DNA of 64,000 bases from Catajapyx aquilonaris (lineage: Eukaryota). The notes under the pieces were generated by a model. The model saw nothing but the letters and a program-made list of their open reading frames with translations. It was not told where the DNA came from and searched no databases. The position numbers and the translations under genes are program-made. Location: contig JYFJ02001330.1 of assembly GCA_000934665.2 (NCBI GenBank), positions 1-64,000 on the forward strand, in the 5' to 3' direction. This document shows positions 3,785-64,000 of the stretch, piece after piece (position 1 is the first letter of the stretch; every line of letters begins with the position of its first letter).

Positions 3785-4755
3785 TGAGCCTTACACTCTG
3801 GTAAGTAGGTATTAGCTAAAGTCAAAAGTCGAAGAGGTCAACTCGTTCGATTTTTAAACCGGTCTGAAGCTAAGTCCTTTATTATAGGACCCAAAATTGA
3901 TACCAGCAGTTCATAAATTCTGGAAAATAGCAATATTTAGATGAGCCTTATTATATGCATGCCCATGTTTTGTGATGTGGTATTCCGTCATGCGTATGGC
4001 AAGGACTGAATTTGTTTCGACCTCAAGTTCTAGACAGTAATACTAATAGCATAAAGTTTTAGAGATTCATTTTTGGATAGAGTTATTCACGTTAATATCG
4101 TTTCAGATGACCTTCGGCCCTGTTATGGAACACTGCTACGCCCATGGATTCGTGATGATGTACTGCAGACATCAAAAATGGTTCCTTCAAATTATGACAG
4201 TCCTTGAAGATCTTGTTGCAACTATGATTTTAAATTACTACAGTGTTATGCTATTGTTGATTCAATTGTGATTATAGCTTGTGCGCTATTCTTCATGATT
4301 TCTGTTACACTCACAGAGATATAACTGTTTCTGTAATTTATTTACATAAATATAACTCTATTGTGATTATACATTTTGCATGTATATTATTCAGGGAAAT
4401 ATAACTACCTCTGTCCATATAGATAATGTTTAATAATATCAGTCACTGAGTTGATCTCAAATGTATAGTCCTACAAGAACAGTAGGCTATAATTTAGACA
4501 TATCCTTCGGGTCAGAGGTCAGTAGGTAAGTTACATACTATACAAAGAAGGGTGAATAGCTAATATGCAACATTCACTTTATTTTGCACAATACTTCAGG
4601 ACATATTTTGTTCTCCCGTAGCTTCCAGAAACAATTACAAGTCCACATATTACAGTAGTTCAAAATAATTACGATCCACCACACTAGCAGGTCTCGATAT
4701 TGACACGATGTAGGCTAATTACATTGTTCCATCATTATTCCACAGCGTTAATTAC

Positions 4756-49091: not shown

Positions 49092-50467
49092 ATGGGGGTT
49101 GCTGGACCCACCAACAAGAGGATAGATTTGGGCAAGTTATTTTGGTTGTTGCAGGCGGCAGTGGGGTACAATGCAGCTTTGTTGCAGATCTGGGTTGGCT
49201 GAACAGCGTGAGGGTGAACCTGCCTGGCGTGAAGCAGAGGGTTCAGGCCATATCCACGAAGCGGGCCCTGAAGAAGCAGTGGCAGGCCGCATGGCTTCTG
49301 CGGGCCGTCACCTGCATTGATCTAACCACGCTTGCTGGTCTGTAAATTGATTGCGATTGATGTAACATCGCTGGCTGAACCGGATTGTATTGCAGGAGAC
49401 GACACGGAAGTAAATGTGCAGCGGCTTTGTTGCAAGGCTGCACATCCGGTTCAGACTGACCTGCTGAAGGCTATGGGCATGCAGGATGTCAGGGTGACTA
49501 CTGCAGCCGTGTGTGTCTATCCTGCCATGGTGAAAGACGCTGCCAGTTGGATTGAGAAGAGCGGGACTAAAATTCCAGTTGCTGCAGGTGGATTTGCATA
49601 CATTTTCATTAAAATCTGTCTTGTAACAGTTGCTCCATTCCAGAAACATTACAGCAAAAGAACAAACGAATTGCCTCGACATAATTCCACACAGTATATG
49701 ACAAGTCCACTAATTGTTACAAACAGGTTTTACTTTACAACTGGCAACACACCAGTTCTCTCATTTAGGAAGAAAAAATTCTGGCATGCTAATCATGATG
49801 ATTAAAACTCTCGGACTCATTTGCTTTTAGTTGCGACTGGATTTCCAAGTGGACAGTACAACCTGCAGACGCGGCTGGGAGAGATAACAGCAGCTGTTGA
49901 AGACGGTGCGTCAGAGATTGACATTGTCATAAATCGGCGACATGCCCTGGCGCATGATTGGAAAGCTCTGTATGACGAGCTGTGCCAAATGAAAGAGGCT
50001 TGCGGACAGGCTCACATGAAGGCTATTTTGGCTGTGGGAGAGCTGGGTTCTATGAAAAATGTGTACAAGGCTTCTCTGGTGGCCATGATGGCAGGAGCAG
50101 ACTTTATCAAGACCTCTACAGGGAAGGAGGCTGTCAACGCCACTCTTCCTGTAGGCTTGGTGATGTGCAGAGCTATTCGGGATTACAGGAAAAAAACTGG
50201 TTTCAACGTAAGGTTCTTTTGCTAGCTGCACTGGTAGCCGTCACAACTGTTTTCTTAAAGGTTGGATTCAAGCCTGCAGGCGGTATTCGCACTGCTAAGG
50301 ATGCGCTGAACTGGTTGATATTAATGAAGGAAGAGCTGGGGAACGAGTGGGTCAAACCAGGCCTGTTCAGAATCGGTGCCTCGGGGCTCCTGACAGACAT
50401 CGAGAGACAACTCTATCACTACGTCACTGGGAAGTACGCTGCTGGACACGAATTCCCAATGGCATAG
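49092..50467 (+). CDS. DERA: Deoxyribose-phosphate aldolase, join(49092..49131,49188..49337,49396..49587,49831..50207,50261..50467), 321 aa
   Basis: WQAAWLLRAVTCIDLTTLAGDDT, ATGFPSGQ, DFIKTSTGKE, GFKPAGGIR and FRIGAS motifs; the first intron is inferred to be GC-AG. Confidence 0.93.
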
Positions 50468-50788
50468 ACTGAGCAATCCATGTAACGAGCCCCAAATTAG
50501 ATACAATAAACATATATTTTTGTCCACACTGCTGAAACAGTGAAAGAAATAGTCGTTGATAAAATAAAATGAAGGTAAAATAAAGCTCTATTTTATTCAT
50601 TCAACAACCTTCCCATTAATTTCCATTGCACCTGGATTGCACCTCATCTTTTGTTAAGTACCAGCCTGTAACCAATCCGATCCACACACTGCAAATACCA
50701 TGTGTAATACCAAAGCTTTGTACTGAGGGACTAAAAATTTTCAAATTGCAACAATGTGACTAGATAACGCCCTAATTTCCCCCCCTCA

Positions 50789-52480
50789 CTAACTCTTCTT
50801 CCCTTCCCATGCGGCCCAATACTCAGGTGTTTGCATCTCAGATAGTCTCGAGACAGTACGATCAAAGGCAAACATCTCTTCTTCGCCGGTGAAAATGCTG
50901 GCCGAGGCGTTTTCTGTCCCAAGGGAGATGTTAAGGTCATCCATGAGTGCTCGGTGCTCATCCATGTTCTGCTCCTGGTTCCGGCTGAACAGCTCTCGAT
51001 GTCCATAGTCAGCAGAGACGACTACCCTCACCCTGTTGTCATACAGGGTGTCAATTAAGGTTATGAAGCGGCGAGCTTCTGACTTGTTCTTGAGGCCCAG
51101 CTGCGGCACATCACGGATGAACACAGTGTGGAAGGCCTGTGAAAGCTGGAGGTAATCACCAGAACCCAAGGGTCGCTCGCAGAGCTCCTTGAAGGTCAGG
51201 TCCGCCACTCCTCCACAAGTGCGGCTGAACTGGACATTACGACCCCGGATGGTCAGAGTCCGAGGGCGCACCACATCATTCTCACGGGAGCACAGCCATT
51301 TGAACAGGGAGTTCATTTCGTCGTCTACGTCACCCTGGGATTTTCTGCAACAATTGTTACGTTTAAGTGGCTACATTGCGGTATGTCAGCACAATATATT
51401 AGGATCACTCACATGAAATACAGCTTTTGCCCTCCTTGTTGCGAGATCTTCTGACGATAATCGACCCCTGAGTCAAGTTTGGTCACATCACATCTGTCTT
51501 TAAGCACCTGTATAAATGGAACAAAGTTTGCCCTCTGCAGTCCACGCTTGTACAGATCATCAGGGTGCCTGTTGGATGTGGCCACCACGACTACCCCTCG
51601 ATCAAATAGCTCTTCAAACAGCCTCTTAAGAATCATGGCATCTCCGATGTCGGTGACCTGGAACTCATCGAAGCAGAGCAACCAGGCCTGCTGGGAGATA
51701 TCGTCTGCGACTGGAGGGATGGGGTCAAAAGGAGAAGGCTTGTTGGATTCCTTTCGTGTGCCTCCCATGGCCTTCTTCAGCTCGTGAATGCGGACATGCA
51801 CCTCTTGCATGAACGAGTTGAAGTGGACGCGGCGTTTGTGGCCCCCAGAGCAGCAGCTGAAGAAGAGGTCCATCAACATTGTCTTGCCACCACCAACTGC
51901 CCCATACACGTAAAGGCCTGGAATAATTTATGGTCACACAATTGGCCAAGCAAATTGGGCACATATGCTTATGGAAGTACATTGCAGTAATGATATATTT
52001 GCATACTGTAAGTAACATGCTCCATAAAACAGAAGCGTCTGACAAATTACTGTGCACGTCAGATGAATTATGAAGGTTATCTAATTGCACTTGGCCGTAC
52101 GACATTCAAACGAGGATATGTGCAACTACAATCATGTGATGTCAAGTGACATCATTTTTGTAATATTTAACGCACTTGACCTGCTTACCCTTGGGATTCT
52201 CAGAAGGTGTAGTTTTATGCTTCTTCTTAAGCAATTTCTCGATGAAGGTTTTCTGAGGAGGCGTGTAGCTAGATATCTTAACGTATATTTTGTCCAGCTG
52301 CTCCATCACTTTCATTTGGTGATCATCGTTCATCAACTCTCCACCGGACACCTTGTTCTTGTAAGCCTGAAGCGGGCTGGTCCCTGTGACCGTGGCGGTG
52401 CAGTACGTGAGCCTCGTCATTATGGATGCTGCAGGGAGAAATTTGGGTCCCAGACGGAGGCCTACTATAAATACGCCCAT
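50789..52480 (-). CDS. AFG1L: AFG1-like mitochondrial ATPase (LACE1), complement(join(50789..51344,51413..51917,52189..52480)), 450 aa
   Basis: PKGLYVYGAVGGGKTMLMDLF (Walker A), LLCFDEFQVTDIGDAMIL (Walker B), ATSNR.PDDLY..GLQR, ARRFITLID.LYD and FAFDRTVSRL.EMQ; the exact start codon is less certain. Confidence 0.93.
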
Positions 52481-53668
52481 TGTAGGCCCTGAAATCAGAC
52501 ACAATATCACGTTAGAATATCGGGGCTGAATACGCAACTTATTTCCATAAGTGATTTCGAAATACCACCGTAGGAAACAACATTTTGTAAATTAAAATTA
52601 TCTATGATTAATATACGTAGAAAAAGATGACAGAAATAGTGTTAACCAAAATCATTTAAATAGCTATTCTGCTGACGTCAAGTGGAATTAATATCTTAAC
52701 GCATCTTTTAGGTCAGCTGGGTCGCATCCCCAGATTAGATACCAAGAGTGAATGACATTCAAGCGTTTAATTAATATGGAATTGTCACATTTCAGTGTAC
52801 ATAGCAATGGAGTAATTAATGTATTGCCAAGAAATAATGATCATTAATTACATGTCATAAACATCTCCAGCAATGGTTGATATAATCATAATTACGGTCA
52901 CTTTTGGACATTACTTGTAATGCTCTCAAGGTCACCGTAATTGATTTGGTAATGCATTACTTTAATAATGCAAAACATGTCCCCGGCACCTCATTATCCA
53001 CATGCCAAGTGCTTGACTTCCTCTGCAATATCGACGGACAACACATTATTTCAAAAGGCAACAAACCGTACATCAAATTGATCAGCCAATTACTTTGGCT
53101 GATCTTCAATATTTCCTACATGTGTATTCCACTGTACTGGCACCTGGACTTACCCCCCTGAGAGTGGACACTCCTTCACGAGACAGCAAACTGCATTGTA
53201 TGAAATATTGAGTACTACTCTGCACTACACTGATTATTACAACATTTTTCTTGCCCAGTTATTACATCATCAACGTTGAGGAGGCGGAAGGGGTGGGTGG
53301 GTGCGGGGGAAGGACTCGTGCGAATTATTAGCAAACCTGTAAATTTTGAGAAGGACTAGTGCAGTCGAATTTAAATTTAAAAAAAAATTGGGTCGAAAAA
53401 AAAAAAAAAAAAGGAATGATCGAACGGGAGAGAAGCCATTTCAGTTGGAAGTTGGGAGGGAAAGTTTAAATGGAAAATAGTTGCTTTTCTTTTCAGATGG
53501 ATGCTGGGGTGGACAACTTGTGTTATTGCAAAATTGGCTTGACTGCATGACTGAAAACCAAGGGATAAAGTGCAACTTATCAAATGATTTTATTCCAAGA
53601 AAAACACTTTATTGCAACAATGGAGCAGGGTCCAGCGCCATATGGGCTCCGTACAAAAAAAAATAATC

Positions 53669-55619
53669 CTACAGCAGTCTAGGCTTCTTATTCTCAGGCT
53701 CAGTAGTTTGGTTCCCATTCTCAGCCTCATTTTCACGGTTGGAGCCGCTTGCTCCAGCCATTTCATCATCGGCTACCTGTGCGTCCATGTTACATTCACC
53801 ATCTTTACCCTCATCCTCCACCCTTTTCACCACAGCATCTGGCTTATCCTCATGATGGCCACTGTTCCCAAATTCACCTGTGGCAAGAAATGGTTTGTCC
53901 TTGCAATGCAAATTCTTGGGTGCGATGAAGTCGACAAGCTTCCCATAATCCTCCTTCTGAATCTCACTGAATGTGTAAACAGCACCACCTTTGGTCTTCA
54001 CTTGAAAAGAGGAGTAAGTGTTCTTTTCACTATTAGAAAGGATGATATTGATGATATCTTGAACGTGCGTATGAATACATGGCTTGTGCAAGAAGATTAA
54101 CCCACGATCAAGGAGGTACAGGTAACCAGCTTGTTCCTTGTAGGTACATTTAATGGCTGGGCCGCCAGAGTGATTCAAGAACTGCTGGGCAGGTCGCGTG
54201 ATCTCCTGGTTTACCATCACCTCCATTATTTGGCCGATGACATCACACTTGGGGCCAGACAGCTTCTTTGTCAGACGGCCTGCATATTTTGTCTTCAGCT
54301 CCTCTCTGTGGTAAAAGAAATGGTCGGTTGTGCATTTCCCAAGCAGGCGTGCAGTATATTACAAGTGGCTGGTTTCTTTTCAACCAAATGTATGCAGGTG
54401 CATCCTATAGTTATTTTGAAAATTTTAAGGAATGTTACCAATAATGTCCTTACAGCTATTCTGGACAACAACAAATATTGAATGGCACAAGCTAGTCGGC
54501 TATCATGCTCATGCTATAAATGCAACAGTGGTGATTCTATACTCACTCAGACAAGGGCAGCTCAATTGACACCACTTCCTCCTGACCAAAAAAGAACACC
54601 AGAAAATTGTAGTAAGTTAGCCCTAGGTAATTGATAGGGTGACCCAGCGAGATGACGAAATAGGTGTGGCTTCCATCATTGTGCGGCAGAAGGTGCAGGC
54701 AACATACATTGGACATGAGGATTTTGTAGTAAAAGGTGTCTCCATGAAGCTGGAAGAAGGTCTGGAACACCTTGATGTCACATATTCCTCCAAGGCCGAA
54801 GCATCGCACCTTCCAAAAGACAGCAATGGCATCTTCAGTGGCACCACACCTCTTGGCCTTTTCCAGCACCGTCATCTGAGGCGACTGAGGATCAGTAATG
54901 TCACAGGCAGATTTCCTCCGAGGAAAGCATGGTACCAATCTCAGCTCCTCGAATGGCACATCATCAATCTGTAACAATAAAGGCAGTGCCTGTCAATACA
55001 AAAATACATCCAATATATTGACTTTACCAGCAACTCACCAGATGAAACAGAAGGTTAATCTTGTCCTTTGCAACAGTGCACTGTGACAAATTCTGCAGCG
55101 GCACATCTACTGGAATTAAATTATCCATGTCCAATGGAATGAAGTTCTTTGCATCCGATGCAGTGATTTTCCCCACTTGACACGGTTCCTCTTCATCATG
55201 AGGCAATTCGGTGCTGAACATGGCTGTGTCCCATTTCAAGCCTTCCTGTGGGGTCCCAACCATCAGGTCAGTCCTGCAGTGCTGCGTCAAGAGATGGACC
55301 AGCTTCTCCTTCTGGGTCTCGTCATTCAATTTCCGACCATAGTTGCAGAGGGTGTCTTTATCCATAATCATGACCAGCCCTTGCCCATCAGGCAGGGGGA
55401 TCCATTCAGGCTGATTCATATCCTTGGCATCGATCACCTCCAGCTTCCCAGTGTCTCTGCTCTTGACCACTGACATCTTCTCAGTCAGCCTCGTCACACG
55501 ACCAGTGCTCTGAAAAGTCACATTATTGAAGCAGCAACACATTTTCATGCATCGAGGTCATTTTGTACCTGAGTCTGGTCCGAAGACTCCAGGGAAACTG
55601 TTGCTGGCCCCTCTGCCAT
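53669..55619 (-). CDS. Divergent SSRP1/Pob3-like protein, copy 1 (no HMG box), complement(join(53669..54305,54547..54968,55039..55509,55569..55619)), 526 aa
   Basis: Collinear with recalled SSRP1: VPLQNLSQCTVAK, TEDAIAVF, DIKVFQTFFQLHGDTFYYKI, LLPH.D...YFVISL..PI..G.T.Y.FL...F, IKCTYK...GYLY.LDRG.IFLHKP, VKTK.G.VYTFS.I.KEDYGKL.DF; the ORF is intact across four exons. Confidence 0.85.
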
Positions 55620-56122
55620 TAGGCCAACCGATGGCCCCTGTAATAAATTAGACCTAAAACCACACACAAGCAGCAATAAGATCAGTACAATGAGGCTCTT
55701 CAGACCAGCATGGCTTGGCAAGCTGCAGGGTGGCCAGATCAAACCCTCCTTTCATTTTACTGTGGCTGGCAACACTGATTAAGCAGTATGCAACAAAACA
55801 ATAAAACCATAATTATTCTGAATGGCTAATTGTGTTTACACCATGATGGTAAATATGGTCAAAAAAGACAAAAAAAAAGGACAGAGCCCATAGAGGTGAG
55901 AAAATGGCAACGGGATAGTAATGAATACGCCTAAATTATGTGATGTCAAGAGTCTCTTGCCTGATCTACTGGTATTCGAAAATGGCGTCAGATCAAGGGA
56001 TAAGGTGCAACTTAACAAATGAGTCAGTTTTTTATTCCAAGAAAACCACTTTATTGCACGAATGACCATGCACATCCATGAAACCTACGCCTGGCTATGG
56101 CTTCCATACAAGAATGATTTTC

Positions 56123-58056
56123 CTACAACAGCTTACGCTTCTTAGCCTCAATATTCCGCTTCTTCTTCTTCTTCCTCCTCCTCTTCTTCTCTGCCCTTCC
56201 ACCATCTTTACCTTCATCCTCCTCCCTCGTCTTCCCCTTGGCCAAGTTAGCATCTGGCTTACCCTTACGGTCTCTCTTCCCAAATTCATATGCAGCCACC
56301 AATGGCTTGTCTACCTTGCCCTGCTTCTTCACTGGCACATTCCTGCTTTTGATGAATTCCAAAACTTTCCCACAACCCCCCTTCCGAATCCTACTGAATG
56401 AGTGAACAACACCAGTCTTGGTCTTCACTTCAAAAGAGCGGCGTGCACGAGAAAAAATGACATTGCTGATATCTCTATAGTGCAAAAGAATGCATGGCGC
56501 ATACAGGTAGATGAGCCCATAATCAAGAAGGTACAGGTAACCATCAACTTGTTCCATGTAGGAACATTCAATTGCTGGGTTGCCAGGGTGACTCAAGAAC
56601 TGCTGAGCAGGTCCAGTGATCTTGCGGTTTGCCATCACAGATATTAGTTTGCTAATGACATCGCCCTTGGGACCAGACAGCTTCTTTGTCAGGCAGCCTT
56701 TATATTTTGTCTTCAGCTCCTCCCTATGGTAAGAGAAATGGTCAGCTGCATATTTCCAAGCAGCGTGCAATTGTCGGTGGCTGGTTTCTATCAACACAAT
56801 TTGTGCAGGTGCATTCTAGTTAGAGATTGCTTAAATTTTTTAAAAAATTGAGGAACGTTAGCAATGCTCATAGAGCTATTATGAAGCCCAAAGCTCTGTG
56901 AAGCTCCGTGAAGCATTGTAGGATGGATCTTTGGAATAGAGTAATGAAATCTCAGCATACTTAATGCTCCTGATATAAACAACAGTGATGCTACTCACTC
57001 AGACATGGGCAGCTCCATTAACACCTCCTCCTCCTGCCCAAAAAGGAACACCAGACAACGGTAGTAAGTTGGGCCTAGGTTGATGGGTTGGCTCAGTGAG
57101 ATGATGAAATAGGTGTGGCGTCCATCCTTGTGCGGCAGAAGGAGCAGGAAACGTACACTGGACATGAGAATTTTGTAGTAATAGATATCTCCATGAAGCT
57201 GGAAGAAGGTCCGGAACACCTTGATGTCACATGTTCCTCCAGGTCTGAAGCATTCCACCCTCGAGAAGACAGCAATGGCATCTTCAGTGGTACCACAGGT
57301 CTTGACCTCTCCAAGTATCTTCATCTGGGCAGACTGAGAAGGATCAATGTCACCACCAGATTTGCTCTGAGGGAAGTGGGGTACCATTTGTATCAGCTTG
57401 AACGGCAGATTATCAATCTGTAACAAAAGTGTGTGTCAATACAAAAATACATCCAACACTGACTTGACCAACCCACCTGATGGAGCTGAAGGTCAAGCTC
57501 CTCCTTCCACACAGTGCACTGCGTCAAATTCTGATGAGGCACCTCAAACAGAACCAATTTATCCATGTCCAGTGGAGCCAAGTTCTCCGTTTCAGCTGGA
57601 ACGACTTGCCCCACTTGACCCTGTTCCTCTTCAGGAGGCACTGGGCTGAACATGGCTGCGTCCCATTTCAAGCCTTCCAGTGGGGTCCCAACCAACAGGT
57701 CAGTCCTGCAGTGCTGCGTCAAGACATGGACCAGCTTCTCCTTCTTGGTCTCATTCAATTTCCGGCCACAATCGCAGATCTTGTCTATATCCGAGAACAT
57801 GAACAGTCCTGGCCGATCAGGCAGGGGGATCCAATCAGGCTGATTGATTGCATCCTTGGCATCCATCAGCTCCAGCTGCCCAGTCTTTCTGCTCTTGACT
57901 AGTGTCATCTGCGCAGTCAGCCTCATCAGACGACCAGTGCTCTGAAAAGCCACACAAATTTTTATGCATCATCATTTTGGGACTTTGGCTTTTACCACGC
58001 ACCTGAGCCCCCTTGTCCGAAGACGCCAGGGAAACTGTTGCTGGCCCCTCTGCCAT
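56123..58056 (-). CDS. Divergent SSRP1/Pob3-like protein, copy 2 (no HMG box), complement(join(56123..56723,56999..57417,57477..57941,58003..58056)), 512 aa
   Basis: Same four-exon structure and intron phases as copy 1; LFEVPHQNLTQCT, LLLPHKDGRHTYFIISL, NRKITGP..F.SH.G..AI.CSY and FEVKTKTG motifs; basic C-terminal tail. Confidence 0.85.
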
Positions 58057-59188
58057 TAGTCCAACTGATGAACCTTGTAAATTAGACTTAGAACCAACTG
58101 TAGACGCAGCCTACTCAGCACAATGGGCCTCATTAGACCGGCATGGCATGGCTTCCTCTGCAGGGTGGCCAGATCCAACCCGCATTATTCCTTATTGTCC
58201 CTGGCAACACTGATTAATTGGGCAAAAATGGCAGTTTGAATCGAAATTATTTTCACTTGCTCCAGGTAGGGATCCATTTATTCCTCCTTGTTATGGTCAA
58301 TATAATGAAATGCAATTGTGCAAAATAAAAATCCATTTATTTCAACATTTTCATAATGCAACAAAACCATGTGAATGGTTGTGTTTACACTATGAGAGGA
58401 AATACGGGCAAAAGAGACAACCGTGAGAGATAAGGACAGAAAATGGACACGGAACAGTCACCAAGTGGCACTTCCTTCCTTGCCGAAAGGTCTCATACTC
58501 GGAAACAATGACGAAAAATGGGAACTGGCATGTTATGCCAAGCTTTCATTTTTACTGGACCCAGCAGACTATTACTGCTTCTGCAATCATCTCTCGTGGT
58601 TCTTCCTCTCAATCGTTTTCCACACACAGTCTAAACCCTCTATTATAAAAATAATTCAACAGCTAAAGCGCCTTGCAAACCAGAGTTCGCAGAAGCTAAC
58701 AAATAAAGTAAAGTTCTTCCCGGATAAGCTTAGTAGCTCAACTTACTGATAAAAAATTAATATACCATATTATCTGCATATAATATCCACTCATTACTCT
58801 CGTAGGTAAATTACTGACAATTACCTCGAAACATTTCAAACACAACTGCTTATTATTTAGCAGGCATAAATTTTCTGCACATTAAATTTTTTACTTAGAA
58901 AATAATAAAGGCCTTAACATGTAATGTTCAGATAATTATGCAGTGCCTAAGCGCTAAGCAGGTTGTATAACCTACATATATATTTACTGGATGATACTAG
59001 ATCAGATTATTGTTCAACACTAAAAAAGACTGGATCAAATTAAAGTAAGCCACCCATGAGCAAGATTGCAAATACATGTGGGCTGTAAAATGTTAAGACT
59101 CAGGATGGCTCACTGACCACCTAGAGCGAGCCATACACATCCCAGCGATTCACATCCTTTCGCTTATTTGCAACTACGATGGGACATA

Positions 59189-59509
59189 CAGTAGAACCCC
59201 GATTATCCGACGCCTCGGTTTATCTGACAGTCCCTCTCCGGGAATAAATCTGCTTCCTCATGAAATACTGTAATGTATTACGCATTTCTTTGTTTTCCCT
59301 TAGTTAAATTGTAAATAGGCCTCCAGTACAGTAGTGTGTGCGCAAGAGAAATACTTCACTATTATTTCTTAAAAAACCATAATATTTTACATTATTTCAT
59401 GTTTTTTGTTGTGTTTTATTAAAGTTTTTTACTCCTCGGATTATCCGACCTTTTCAGTTATCCGTCGATGCCCCAGGCCCGTGGGTGACGGATAATAGGG
59501 GTTCTACTG
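59189..59509. mobile_element. 321-bp pogo/Tigger-like MITE
   Basis: TA-CAGTAGAACCCCGATTATCCG...CGGATAATAGGGGTTCTACTG-TA: 21-bp TIR with 1 mismatch, TA TSD; internal TTATCCG subrepeats. Confidence 0.85.
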
Positions 59510-59597
59510 TAGTTGAATCCCTCACATTCATTTGATCCAGCCGTGTACTTAAGACCTAATTAAATCTCAGAGATCACAGTTGAAGTAAGCGCTTGTA

Positions 59598-60134
59598 CAA
59601 GGGGCGTTATGAAAGTCTTTCCAATTTTTTTTGCCGCAAATACAGGGCCCATGAAGGTCAGCAGATAGGTACACATTATGGATAGAACCCTCCTGGAGAC
59701 AAATGCACTGGCACCATGGGTGTGGCAGCATGTTCAGGCCCTCCAGGAACCACTTTTTGGACAACTGCTTCCTGTTCAACAATGTCCTCGAAATGACATC
59801 GGCAAATGAGTTTTTTCAAGGCTCTGAATAGGTAAAAGTCGCTGGCAGCCAGGCCAGGGGAGTGCTGCAGGTGTGGAAGCACCCTAACACAGATCCTCGA
59901 AAAAATCCCTTCGCCTACCCCATTTGTTGACAGTTGTTGACTAATAGCAGTTGTCTGGCAGAGGGTGCGACGCACCACCAAAAAATGGTTCCTGTGGGTC
60001 TGGAGAAGTTGCCACACCCGACAGTGCATTCAGCTCCAGGAGGGTTCAATAATGTGTGTCTGTCTGCCAATCTGTAAGAGCCTTGTATTTGGGGCAAAAA
60101 AAATAAAGTGTAAAGACATTCCTAACCCCCCTCG
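59598..60134 (-). mobile_element. Degenerate mariner-derived element (transposase C-terminal relic with inverted duplicated 3' end)
   Basis: VLPHLQHSPGLAASDFYLFRALKK resembles mariner LPHPPYSPDLAPSDF.LF..LK; termini TA-CAAGGGG and CCCCTCG-TG; 59600-59760 mirrors 59975-60134. Confidence 0.7.
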
Positions 60135-61258: not shown

Positions 61259-61789
61259 TCAAGAAAAGATATTCTTGACAACACGTTCTATCCTGTCCCT
61301 GCATATAGGGCACCGCTGTCCCGACTTCCACAATTTTTTTGCACATGAGTAGCAGTAGACTTGATGCCCGAGCTTCCCATGAACAATGCAAGCATCTCTG
61401 GGTTGGTCCTGACACATCTTGCAGAGGCCAACCCTTGGAGGGTCGTCCACGTCCTGAGATGCCTTCATTGCAGACGACGAATGAGGAGAGTTGGACACTA
61501 CAGATGCCTGCGAGGACATTTTGACCAGGCTGGTGCCGTCAGGGACGTCTTCACTTTTCACCTGAGAAGGCTGCGGTTCTGCCCATGAGCAGGATGGCAT
61601 TGGCTCTTCTTGGGTTCCTGGAAAATTTTCTTGTGAAGACATCCCCACTCCAGAATCAGTGGTTGCAGAGGATATGTCTTTCTTGAGGGTAGGGTTGCAG
61701 GGGAGGTGCTCCAAGCCAGTCAACTTGGTTTTGGGGCGACGAGGGCGGCGTCGAGGCTTCCGCCGCTCAGGAAGCCAATTCTTGCGGAC
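61259..61789 (-). CDS. MDM2/MDM4-like E3 ligase, terminal coding exon (partial)
   Basis: Acceptor aattcag|VRKNWLPE (the motif following the MDM2 RanBP2 zinc finger); C-terminal C2H2C4 RING CKMC...RDACIVHGKLGHQVYCYSCAKKLWK....CPICR..I..VVKNIFS; upstream exons not found in the window. Confidence 0.85.
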   Translation of the reverse strand, partial: VRKNWLPERRKPRRRPRRPKTKLTGLEHLPCNPTLKKDISSATTDSGVGMSSQENFPGTQEEPMPSCSWAEPQPSQVKSEDVPDGTSLVKMSSQASVVSNSPHSSSAMKASQDVDDPPRVGLCKMCQDQPRDACIVHGKLGHQVYCYSCAKKLWKSGQRCPICRDRIERVVKNIFS

Positions 61790-64000
61790 CTGAATTAAAT
61801 TCATGACATTAATATTTTGGGATTATATTTACCAAGTTGGCTTAGGCGGCACTTGTCACACTACTCCTCTTTGTACTTCTTTTCTAATAAATCTGCCCTC
61901 TGTCCTGTTCCTTCTGCAACTACCGCGAGGTATTGAAACAGACTAATCCAAAAAAGCAGACCTGGATGTGAAATAAAAATTCATTAAATGGTAGACTGAC
62001 TTCTAAGCCCTCGTTGACGACATCTCTGTGCAAAGATCTTATGCATTAGTTGTGTGCAATCTCTTGATTCATATGTATTCGACTCCAGATATAACAGATT
62101 TCAAAGGACGATTAATGGAACACAAGGGCTCTCTCAACCTGTCAACTGCAACAACCTGTTACATGAATCAAGTAAGGCCTATTAATTTTTCATCATTTTA
62201 CTAGTGGCCCACAGCCAAAAACTGCAAGACATTAAACTTATATTGAATTAATTAATCGGAGAGACAGCAGCTCAGTTCAGTTCAGAAATTGCAGAGTCCG
62301 CAAGAAGCAAAAGATGTTGAATTGCCTCCTGGTCTGCCAACTCATTCCCGACAATCCCAATGTGAGCTTTGACCCAACAGATCTCCATGGTCCCTCAACA
62401 TGCCCACAGTATACGTACATTGGGCAGGGACAGATGTTGGAACTGCTGAACGGGGATTAGTGATGGTCTGCAGGGCTAAATGACAATCAGACACCACCCA
62501 AACTGTGGCTCCAGACAGCAGCATCCAGGATATCACTCACTGCAATGCCCGTTCCACCATGGACAGCTCAATGTGGCAGAGAGCAGACATCAGAATGTAA
62601 GAGATGCAGTCCATGGCCAGGATCTCCCCACGACTGCCAATGCAAATGACGCCCCGCTGGAACCATCGCATGTTACTGATCCGTCGGTAAAGAACAAGAT
62701 GTCCATGTCTTCCAGAAACCTTGTCGAGGTGAGGATGACTGGTAGATCCCATTCCCCACAGGGGTGACAGGTCCCGAGAACCGCAGGGATGCGATGAAAC
62801 CCTCATCTGCCGAAGATATACATCACAAGACTCCCAGATGGTCCAGGCCTGCAACTTCTGTGAGGAATTACAGGAGGTTGTTGGGGGTAGTCATATAACA
62901 TGGGTCGAAATATTTGAATACGAAGGAGCAACTTGCAAAATATTGTTATCTGCACTCCAAACTGAGCCTTGGAGTGCAAAGTTTGCACTTCGGTTGGTAC
63001 AGCTGTTTTTTTTTTATCATGGCTAAACCCAGTAATTTAAAAAATAAGCACTCCGAATAATTCGCACTTCATATTGAAGATTATATTGCAAACTTTGCAC
63101 CTGGACAAAAAATTAAAGATTTGACCCCTAATGTACGCTCTTGTGGCAGCCAGAGAGAAGAGCAGCAGAGCTGCCTGGAGGCAAGAGCGGATTGCCAAAT
63201 GCCTCGCACAGTGATCCAAAATCTTGGCCCCGAAACGGAGCATGGGAAGAATGGCAGCTGACAGGGTTCTATGTGCTTTGCAGAAAAAGTGCCCAGTTAA
63301 GTCCAGCGACCGGCTATACTCTAGACTTCAAAGGACTGGGGAAACTGGTAGGCTCAAACCGAGCTTTCCTACATCCAAATACACAGGCTACATATAGAAG
63401 AATGGCTTTTCGAGTCTGCTGTAACCCAGGGTTGCTCATAGCCGAGGCTCTTATATCCGAGTCTACTGTGTTAGTCAGTTTAGAAATTTCCCACTATGAG
63501 CAGCTATACATCATTGCTTTTGGTACATGGTCACAAATTCTGCTCTTGGTTTGTGTTTCAAAGGGATGGCTTTCCTAGCATATATGGGCATATCTGCTGG
63601 GTTTACACTTTCCTAGCTTGATTTCTGGCAAAATTACCATACTTCCAACTCGATGACATAACTTGTAACTGATAAACCTGCCTTACGATACAAAACTAAA
63701 GAATTTTCCCCATGCTACAGTTGTAAGGTTCTACCCTGCATTCACGAATAAAACTGTGAGATGCTGATTGACCTGCTCCTGCCAAGTCCCTGCCGGAAAA
63801 ACCACAAGTCAGGGGAAGAGCAGATCTGGCACATTCAACAACCAACATAGCAACTGATGAAGCGCAAGACATGTTTTATGGGTTGCAGCTTCAAACTGGC
63901 CACTGCGGCATAGCACCAGCTCTTCCCACCTCTTGAGCTGGAAGAACTGGCGGAGAGCTGCTTTCTCTCCATATTTTGTGGCCCAAAAGGAGTGATACCA

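Follow-up and report, generated by a model that had tools for sequence, protein, structure and literature searches.

We analysed a stretch of 64,000 nucleotides from Catajapyx aquilonaris (positions 1 to 64,000 of contig JYFJ02001330.1, assembly GCA_000934665.2; hereafter the window) and searched the genome assembly (286 Mb, 20,583 contigs). We found that positions 53,400-58,420 hold two direct repeat units, each carrying a truncated copy of the gene for the FACT subunit SSRP1. The units are spaced 2.40-2.55 kb apart, and both of their flanks are repeated too. The copies, A and B, lie on the minus strand and comprise four exons each, predicted from the sequence (Table 1), with open reading frames (ORFs) of 526 and 512 amino acids. 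All six introns follow the GT-AG rule, with phases 0, 0 and 2 in each copy and a weak donor, GTACAA, at intron 1 of A. These exon models and the spacing of the units bear out the initial annotation, which had described tandem direct units with shared flanks, identical phases and intact frames of the same lengths. A and B are 61% identical to each other and 48% identical to the canonical SSRP1 of the host. The low identity between the copies led us to reject an assembly artefact.

A canonical, HMG-containing SSRP1, which the initial annotation had proposed to look for elsewhere in the genome, was found once, on contig C1552 (seven exons, 722 amino acids, HMG box). Among the matches listed, the sequences nearest to this protein are from arthropods (78% to a daphniid entry). 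A and B keep canonical introns 2 and 3 and the intron-1 acceptor, and all three of their introns are homologous in sequence to the canonical ones, so that a retrocopy was rejected, as had been argued from the presence of introns. Relative to the canonical gene, the start codon and the intron-1 donor are apparently shifted in frame. Both copies end at the old intron-4 donor, where a short deletion moves the last codons into another frame and GTAAGT now provides the stop. As judged from these gene structures, A and B arose by DNA-level duplication of SSRP1, and the source may have been either a whole-gene duplicate with an internal deletion or a partial duplicate. The remnant of a canonical 3' untranslated region after A is weak (9 of 200 shuffles reach its score), and none was found after B.

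By descent, as traced from the middle domain, the introns and phylogeny, A and B are members of the SSRP1/Pob3 family. The tandem-PH middle domain (PF21103 and PF08512) passes the Pfam cut-off in both copies, with 71.7 bits (A) and 85.3 bits (B) for PH1_SSRP1-like and 60.5 bits (A) and 42.3 bits (B) for Rttp106-like_middle. Of the SSRP1 domains that the initial annotation had listed for checking, these two were thus recovered, while POB3_N and SSrecog (PF17292, PF03531) stay below the cut-off in both copies, yet can be aligned to the canonical exon; exon 2 of A scores 16.3 bits for POB3_N versus 79.9 for the canonical exon. Four PH domains are present in both copies, in the order of canonical SSRP1. 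The predicted structure of the N-terminal PH domain of B, folded with an alignment of SSRP1 relatives, matches human SSRP1-N (PDB 5umr) with an E-value of 1.9e-5. This first PH domain is the only confident part of the prediction for B exon 2 (mean predicted local distance difference test score 59, below 50 at residues 88-133), and the insertion could not be placed.

In a tree of five host sequences and 16 relatives (the closest well-covered ones among 149), the four modelled paralogs all fall into one clade with the host canonical SSRP1 (support 100/99), and because of this grouping we regard A and B as lineage-specific SSRP1 duplicates. The branch leading to them measures 0.71 plus about 0.28 changes per site, or about 1 on the paralog lineage, versus 0.003 for the canonical tip. 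The description of the pair as intact, fast-evolving and specific to this lineage thus stands. A HMMER search returned 603 relatives; among the best 150 listed, none exceeds 52% identity and there is no ortholog of the paralogs. A word-index search with A exon 4 among longer proteins gave no match.

No HMG exon was found within the window (best tblastn E 9.4), in agreement with the absence of the box noted before. The HMG exon of SSRP1 has nine matches in the genome, one of them at more than 40% identity, and the two best of the others are HMGB-type genes. As only one of the genome matches is close and the window contributes none, a downstream exon supplying an HMG box to A or B, which would have overturned the initial annotation, was rejected. 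The two HMGB-type genes, on separate contigs (C1635 and C7524), are closely similar to each other and contain tandem HMG boxes.

The changes extend to the surfaces with which SSRP1 holds the nucleosome. Published work is cited here and below by PubMed Central number. Host residues 152-430 are numbered as human minus one, by gap-free alignments. In the middle domain, R211, R213, K346 and K364 form the DNA-binding patch, and K228 lies on the same face (PMC4685450). The equivalents of R211, R213, K346, K364 and K228 are G, I, K, K and D in A and G, T, M, A and D in B, so that A keeps two of five and B none. The K/R residues of the first middle PH as a whole were lost more often than chance predicts, at 0.41 kept versus 0.72 expected (2 of 1,000 simulations), and the core of this domain was kept. 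In both copies, the motif replacements described in the initial annotation (TPRGRY by GLGGIC or RPGGTC, KGWNWG by EGLKWD) are present. The H2A-H2B anchor corresponds to human D479-F482, a conserved motif according to PMC8639466, and a (D/E)xx(F/Y) anchor is also reported in the acidic tail of Pob3 (PMC7708052). Its host counterpart, DEDF at 486, is deleted in both copies, and neither tail contains (D/E)xx(F/Y). The Q265 equivalent is Y or L, and the tails themselves are mildly acidic in A and basic in B, with isoelectric points (pI) of 5.3 and 9.3 for the two proteins. Alignment with the host gene thus shows that A and B lost the HMG box, the H2A-H2B anchor and the basic middle-domain patch.

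The reading frames and the fold, in comparison, have been kept. Rates were estimated with custom codon-model scripts, not with PAML. The ratio of nonsynonymous to synonymous change (dN/dS, or omega) between A and B is 1.07 (profile interval 0.8-1.5; dN 0.25, dS 0.24; 446 codons). Divergence is 0.25, 0.20 and 0.21 at the three codon positions, 0.165 at four-fold sites and 0.19 in introns, so that neither introns nor four-fold sites exceed codon positions 1 and 2. In neutral simulations, five to six stops are expected per copy since the split, and both frames remain open in 1 of 20,000 runs; for the whole clade, the frames remain open in none of 20,000. All ten indels in the coding core are multiples of three, versus 8 of 22 in non-coding sequence (P ~4e-5), a count that leaves out two tail gaps of 52 and 1 nucleotides (net 51). 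Of 141 large hydrophobic sites, 89-90% stay hydrophobic versus 75% expected (0 of 2,000 simulations under a null that forbids stops only), and replacements are more conservative than under the stop-forbidding null (0 of 2,000 runs). Among conserved residues of the family, A and B keep 34 and 36 of 48 structural ones and only 10 and 7 of 24 charged or polar ones (Fisher p 0.022 and 0.0003). The retention of frame, indel length and core therefore indicates that selection kept frame and fold while the remainder changed at or above the neutral rate. The initial annotation had taken dN/dS near 1 as a mark of young pseudogenes. The ratio is indeed near 1; stops, frameshifts and broken splice sites have not accumulated at the neutral rate, and because the constraints on stops, frame and fold are strong, we do not regard A and B as pseudogenes.

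The second PH domain of SSRP1 is described as the one that binds SPT16 (PMC8639466, PMC6028955). Six SSRP1 residues at this interface were mutated in Dictyostelium, according to PMC6028955, and mapping by motif and spacing only places them at host W106, N107, W108, F128, L159 and M162. The equivalents are L, K, W, F, L and M in B and L, K, W, V, E and L in A. By this mapping, B retains four of the six presumed interface residues (W108, F128, L159, M162) and A one. Modelled together without alignments and as incomplete domains, one SPT16 exon and a fragment of B (exon 2 plus the beginning of exon 3) scored 0.00, a value that weighs neither for nor against binding. These residues suggest that copy B may still bind SPT16 and that copy A has probably lost the contact. 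B is the better candidate for occupying SPT16, because it keeps most of the hydrophobic interface residues and has a very basic tail. SPT16 itself matched one locus in the genome, and no co-duplicated partner was found.

A and B are not the only truncated copies. At least four more are present on contigs C7563, C2446, C7664 and C5660 and form a second paralog group; paralog counts are lower bounds in this fragmented assembly. The C5660 copy probably continues in C10222 or C10211, which differ at 7 of 640 nucleotides and are either alleles or a recent duplicate. In the second group, in-frame deletions have removed the dimerisation domain or both N-terminal domains, and what is left is an Rtt106-like middle domain followed by an acidic tail. 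These copies show traces of exon 6 or 7 and no match to the HMG exon 5. This group, too, is without the H2A-H2B anchor and most of the DNA-binding patch. Two of its tips have omega values of 0.51 and 0.63, and the C2446 copy, which has diverged from its sister by 7%, is broken by a stop and a 2-nucleotide insertion. Shared changes such as K228D raised the possibility of gene conversion between the paralog groups, which was rejected since informative sites show no tract.

We consider it very probable that A and B are alive, folded and disarmed. Among the roles considered we favour, more tentatively, that of folded nuclear four-PH proteins which no longer have nucleosome-binding surfaces and which may act in a restricted tissue as decoys for, or modulators of, the partners of FACT. 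In such a history, a single SSRP1 gene would have been duplicated at the DNA level, and the copy would have lost everything past exon 4, with a short deletion changing the frame and the intron-4 donor turning into a stop. The truncated copy would then have moved to its present locus and undergone tandem duplication, and both copies would since have been constrained to keep the frame open and the four-PH scaffold able to fold, with the chromatin-gripping surfaces being lost. Their products would most likely be nuclear, given the basic ends that resemble nuclear localisation signals. They would be unable to act as histone chaperones as Pob3 does, and would still meet FACT-pathway partners through the PH domains, so that FACT might be dampened or redirected in a restricted cell type, e.g., the germline. 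A bolder version, which we think unlikely, makes them a natural family of FACT antagonists: the HMG box would have been lost twice by different deletions and the DNA and histone surfaces shed under selection, and copy B, if not both copies, would draw SPT16 away from canonical SSRP1 and bring it onto chromatin by means of its basic tail, so that FACT would be adjusted in the germline or in conflict with selfish elements.

Several observations weigh against decoys or modulators that stay in touch with FACT. The SPT16-binding PH domain is the most diverged one (29-35% identity to canonical), and in both copies it contains the insertion after the GWNWG equivalent, as initially annotated (21 amino acids in A, 19 in B), and the replacements N107K, G109D, R163V and F164P. 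Its hydrophobic retention, 0.74 versus 0.68, is not significant (203 of 1,000 simulations). The depletion of K/R from the first middle PH is one of 20 domain-by-statistic tests. Omega is about 1 on each of the three paralog branches (0.90 on the stem, 1.03 for A, 1.11 for B), versus 0.04 on the canonical branch, and the differences between A and B show no overall correlation with conservation in the family (Spearman -0.04, p 0.45). A model with a site class at omega of about 3.6, comprising 28% of codons, beats the neutral model, with twice the log-likelihood difference (2dL) at 15.7 and none of 27 equal-rate null runs reaching it, and suggests positive selection on A and B. Once the null allows rate variation and doublet mutations, 3 of 26 runs attain this value, so that the suggestion is not robust to rate variation among sites. 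Expression in the germline is an analogy, borrowed from C. elegans HMG-3 and the ciliate paralogs. Recent death of one copy may also be compatible with the sequence statistics.

The divergence of the dimerisation domain, the fastest in the gene at about 1.5 times the gene-wide rate, speaks for a role independent of FACT, in which the four-PH scaffold was recruited for new partners, possibly in conflict with transposons or viruses, and loss of contacts was favoured as it stops the poisoning of normal FACT. The second paralog group, whose frames are open without a dimerisation domain, the strong charge difference between A and B and the site class of elevated omega in the equal-rate comparison fit such a role as well. 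We find it rather doubtful, given that B retains most of the presumed SPT16 interface residues, that null runs with rate variation and doublets match the selection signal and that our literature search found nothing tying SSRP1 to transposon or virus conflict. If A and B were instead weakly constrained or recently dead, i.e., harmless folded proteins at low expression, or genes functional until lately and now decaying, the similar values of dN, dS and intron divergence would be expected, and the broken C2446 copy would be a precedent. This explanation is improbable in view of the stops that a dispensable gene should have gathered since the split. It also has to contend with a clade length of about 0.5 synonymous changes per site over which the reading frame, the splice sites, the promoter motifs and the hydrophobic core all persisted (the promoter pattern was derived from these very sites in canonical, A and B).

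The initial annotation had called the copies Pob3-like, and in a working FACT subunit of this kind they would pair with SPT16 and chaperone histones with the help of a separate HMG protein. In favour of this are the presence of all four PH domains and of separate HMGB-type genes in the genome; SSRP1 without an HMG box works in yeast and Dictyostelium, and an HMG-less SSRP1 core is reported to bind H3-H4 (PMC7708052, PMC6028955). We nevertheless judge it very unlikely, because the H2A-H2B anchor is deleted, the DNA patch lost, the Q265 equivalent replaced and the dimerisation domain below the Pfam cut-off; Pob3 has retained each of these features. The label could not be maintained: Pob3 is described as keeping an acidic cap-and-anchor H2A-H2B motif and a DNA-binding middle domain (PMC7708052, PMC8639466, PMC4685450), both of which the two copies have lost.

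A comparison with known systems shows what A and B share with other SSRP1 proteins. They resemble canonical metazoan SSRP1 (human, PDB 6upk and 9eh2; host C1552) in the four PH domains, introns 2 and 3 and the intron-1 acceptor, and differ from it by the absence of the HMG box, C-terminal region, acidic anchor and basic patch and by the insertion of 19-21 amino acids. Two insect models come from automatic annotation and could be model errors: Bemisia tabaci XP_018911819.1, SSRP1-like without the N-terminal PH or the HMG box, keeps the TPRGRY patch and the acidic anchor, and Diabrotica XP_050508610.1, in which three SSRP1 middle-domain units are joined to C2H2 fingers and no HMG hit occurs, keeps the TPRGRY patch, unlike A and B. 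Among 17 database relatives of SSRP1 that were scanned, nine are without an HMG hit, some being fragments. In C. elegans, HMG-3 and HMG-4 presumably both keep the HMG box, as their names imply. Like A and B, HMG-3 (germline) and HMG-4 (soma) are duplicated SSRP1 genes beside one functional SPT16, with tissue specialisation; unlike A and B, they are described as functional FACT subunits (PMC8132116). Paramecium Pob3-1 and an Oxytricha SSRP1 paralog are reported as divergent, stage-specific and HMG-less (64% identity), and may not form FACT (PMC7402521, PMC5312943). Pob3-1 differs from A and B in that, by the Paramecium account, it has histone-binding domains and a matching SPT16-1 paralog, whereas no SPT16 paralog was found in this genome. 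Yeast Pob3 and Dictyostelium SSRP1 share with A and B a length of about 510-550 amino acids, four PH domains and the absence of the HMG box; they are described as working subunits with SPT16 binding and an H2A-H2B-binding acidic tail (PMC7708052, PMC6028955, PMC8639466), whereas A and B are extra genes without anchor or patch.

SSRP1 paralogs and HMG-less SSRP1 are thus already known, and so are tissue-specific SSRP1 paralogs in nematodes and ciliates. Our search of the open-licence literature found no report of an animal family of intact SSRP1 copies stripped of all known nucleosome contacts, and none in arthropods. SSRP1 is normally near invariant, as the omega of the canonical branch illustrates here. 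If the disarmed state of A and B holds true, such live copies, with the fold preserved and all known contacts to the nucleosome gone, would amount to natural separation-of-function variants. They could help to test the function of the four PH domains in the absence of DNA and H2A-H2B binding, and to ask if decoy subunits serve to regulate FACT in animals.

Table 1. Predicted exons of the two SSRP1 paralogs and associated elements (positions in the window)
Feature	Position	Strand	Description
A exon 1	55569..55619	-	17 codons; new upstream ATG; donor apparently ~15 nucleotides upstream of the canonical donor
A exon 2	55039..55509	-	N-terminal PH and most of dimerisation PH; 21-amino-acid insertion at ~55150-55212
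A exon 3	54547..54968	-	End of dimerisation domain, then first middle-domain PH; G, I, D at the positions of human R211, R213, K228
A exon 4	53669..54305	-	Second middle-domain PH and mildly acidic tail of 58 amino acids ending KKPRLL, without (D/E)xx(F/Y); stop on old intron-4 donor
B exon 1	58003..58056	-	18 codons
B exon 2	57477..57941	-	N-terminal PH and most of dimerisation PH; 19-amino-acid insertion at ~57588-57644
B exon 3	56999..57417	-	G, T, D at the positions of human R211, R213, K228
B exon 4	56123..56723	-	Second middle-domain PH (K346, K364 equivalents M, A) and basic tail of 45 amino acids (21 K/R, 8 D/E) ending KKRKLL
Inverted promoter-like motif pair upstream of A	55726..55777		Also upstream of the canonical gene; 15 nucleotides identical in canonical, A and B
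Same promoter-like motif pair upstream of B	58161..58212		As for A
Candidate poly(A) site of A	53588..53622	-	AATAAA, then GT-rich element, ~50 nucleotides past the A stop; 91% identical to the B element (window repeat family D15)
Candidate poly(A) site of B	56030..56064	-	Counterpart of the A site (window repeat family D15)
Short element at unit junction	55830..55881		Look-alikes at 53385-53415 and 58379-58420 (window repeat families D10, D13)

The short element at the junction of the units is a candidate substrate for the unequal crossover that may have produced the tandem pair. Exon 1 is the most conserved exon, with three differences in 51 nucleotides between A and B. The first 30 coding nucleotides (55590-55619 and 58027-58056) are identical, synonymous sites included, which may point to a conversion tract or to a regulatory element that overlaps the coding sequence. 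Upstream of the canonical gene (locus position 4734-4748) and of the second-group paralogs stands a CAAGATGGC(G/A)GC element, which we take to resemble a YY1 site and which reads as a four-codon upstream ORF; it is lost in A and B, which retain the two other promoter motifs.

The neighbours of the tandem pair are genes for an AFG1-like ATPase, a DeoC aldolase and a RING-finger protein. The SSRP1 unit has probably moved, because these neighbours differ, as judged by eye, from the ORFs flanking the canonical gene. The DeoC aldolase (plus strand) and the AFG1-like ATPase (minus strand) lie tail to tail at 49806-52591, just downstream of A. The gene at 61259-63300 (minus strand) has a RING finger at its end (PF13920), presumably of the MDM2 type by its pattern, and a possible SWIB-like exon near 62800-63030. 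Between B and this gene, a small element with 28-nucleotide terminal inverted repeats, similar to miniature inverted-repeat transposable elements, occupies 59187-59511, and 59624-60104 holds another inverted-repeat element, whose decayed ORF is mariner-like as judged by eye.

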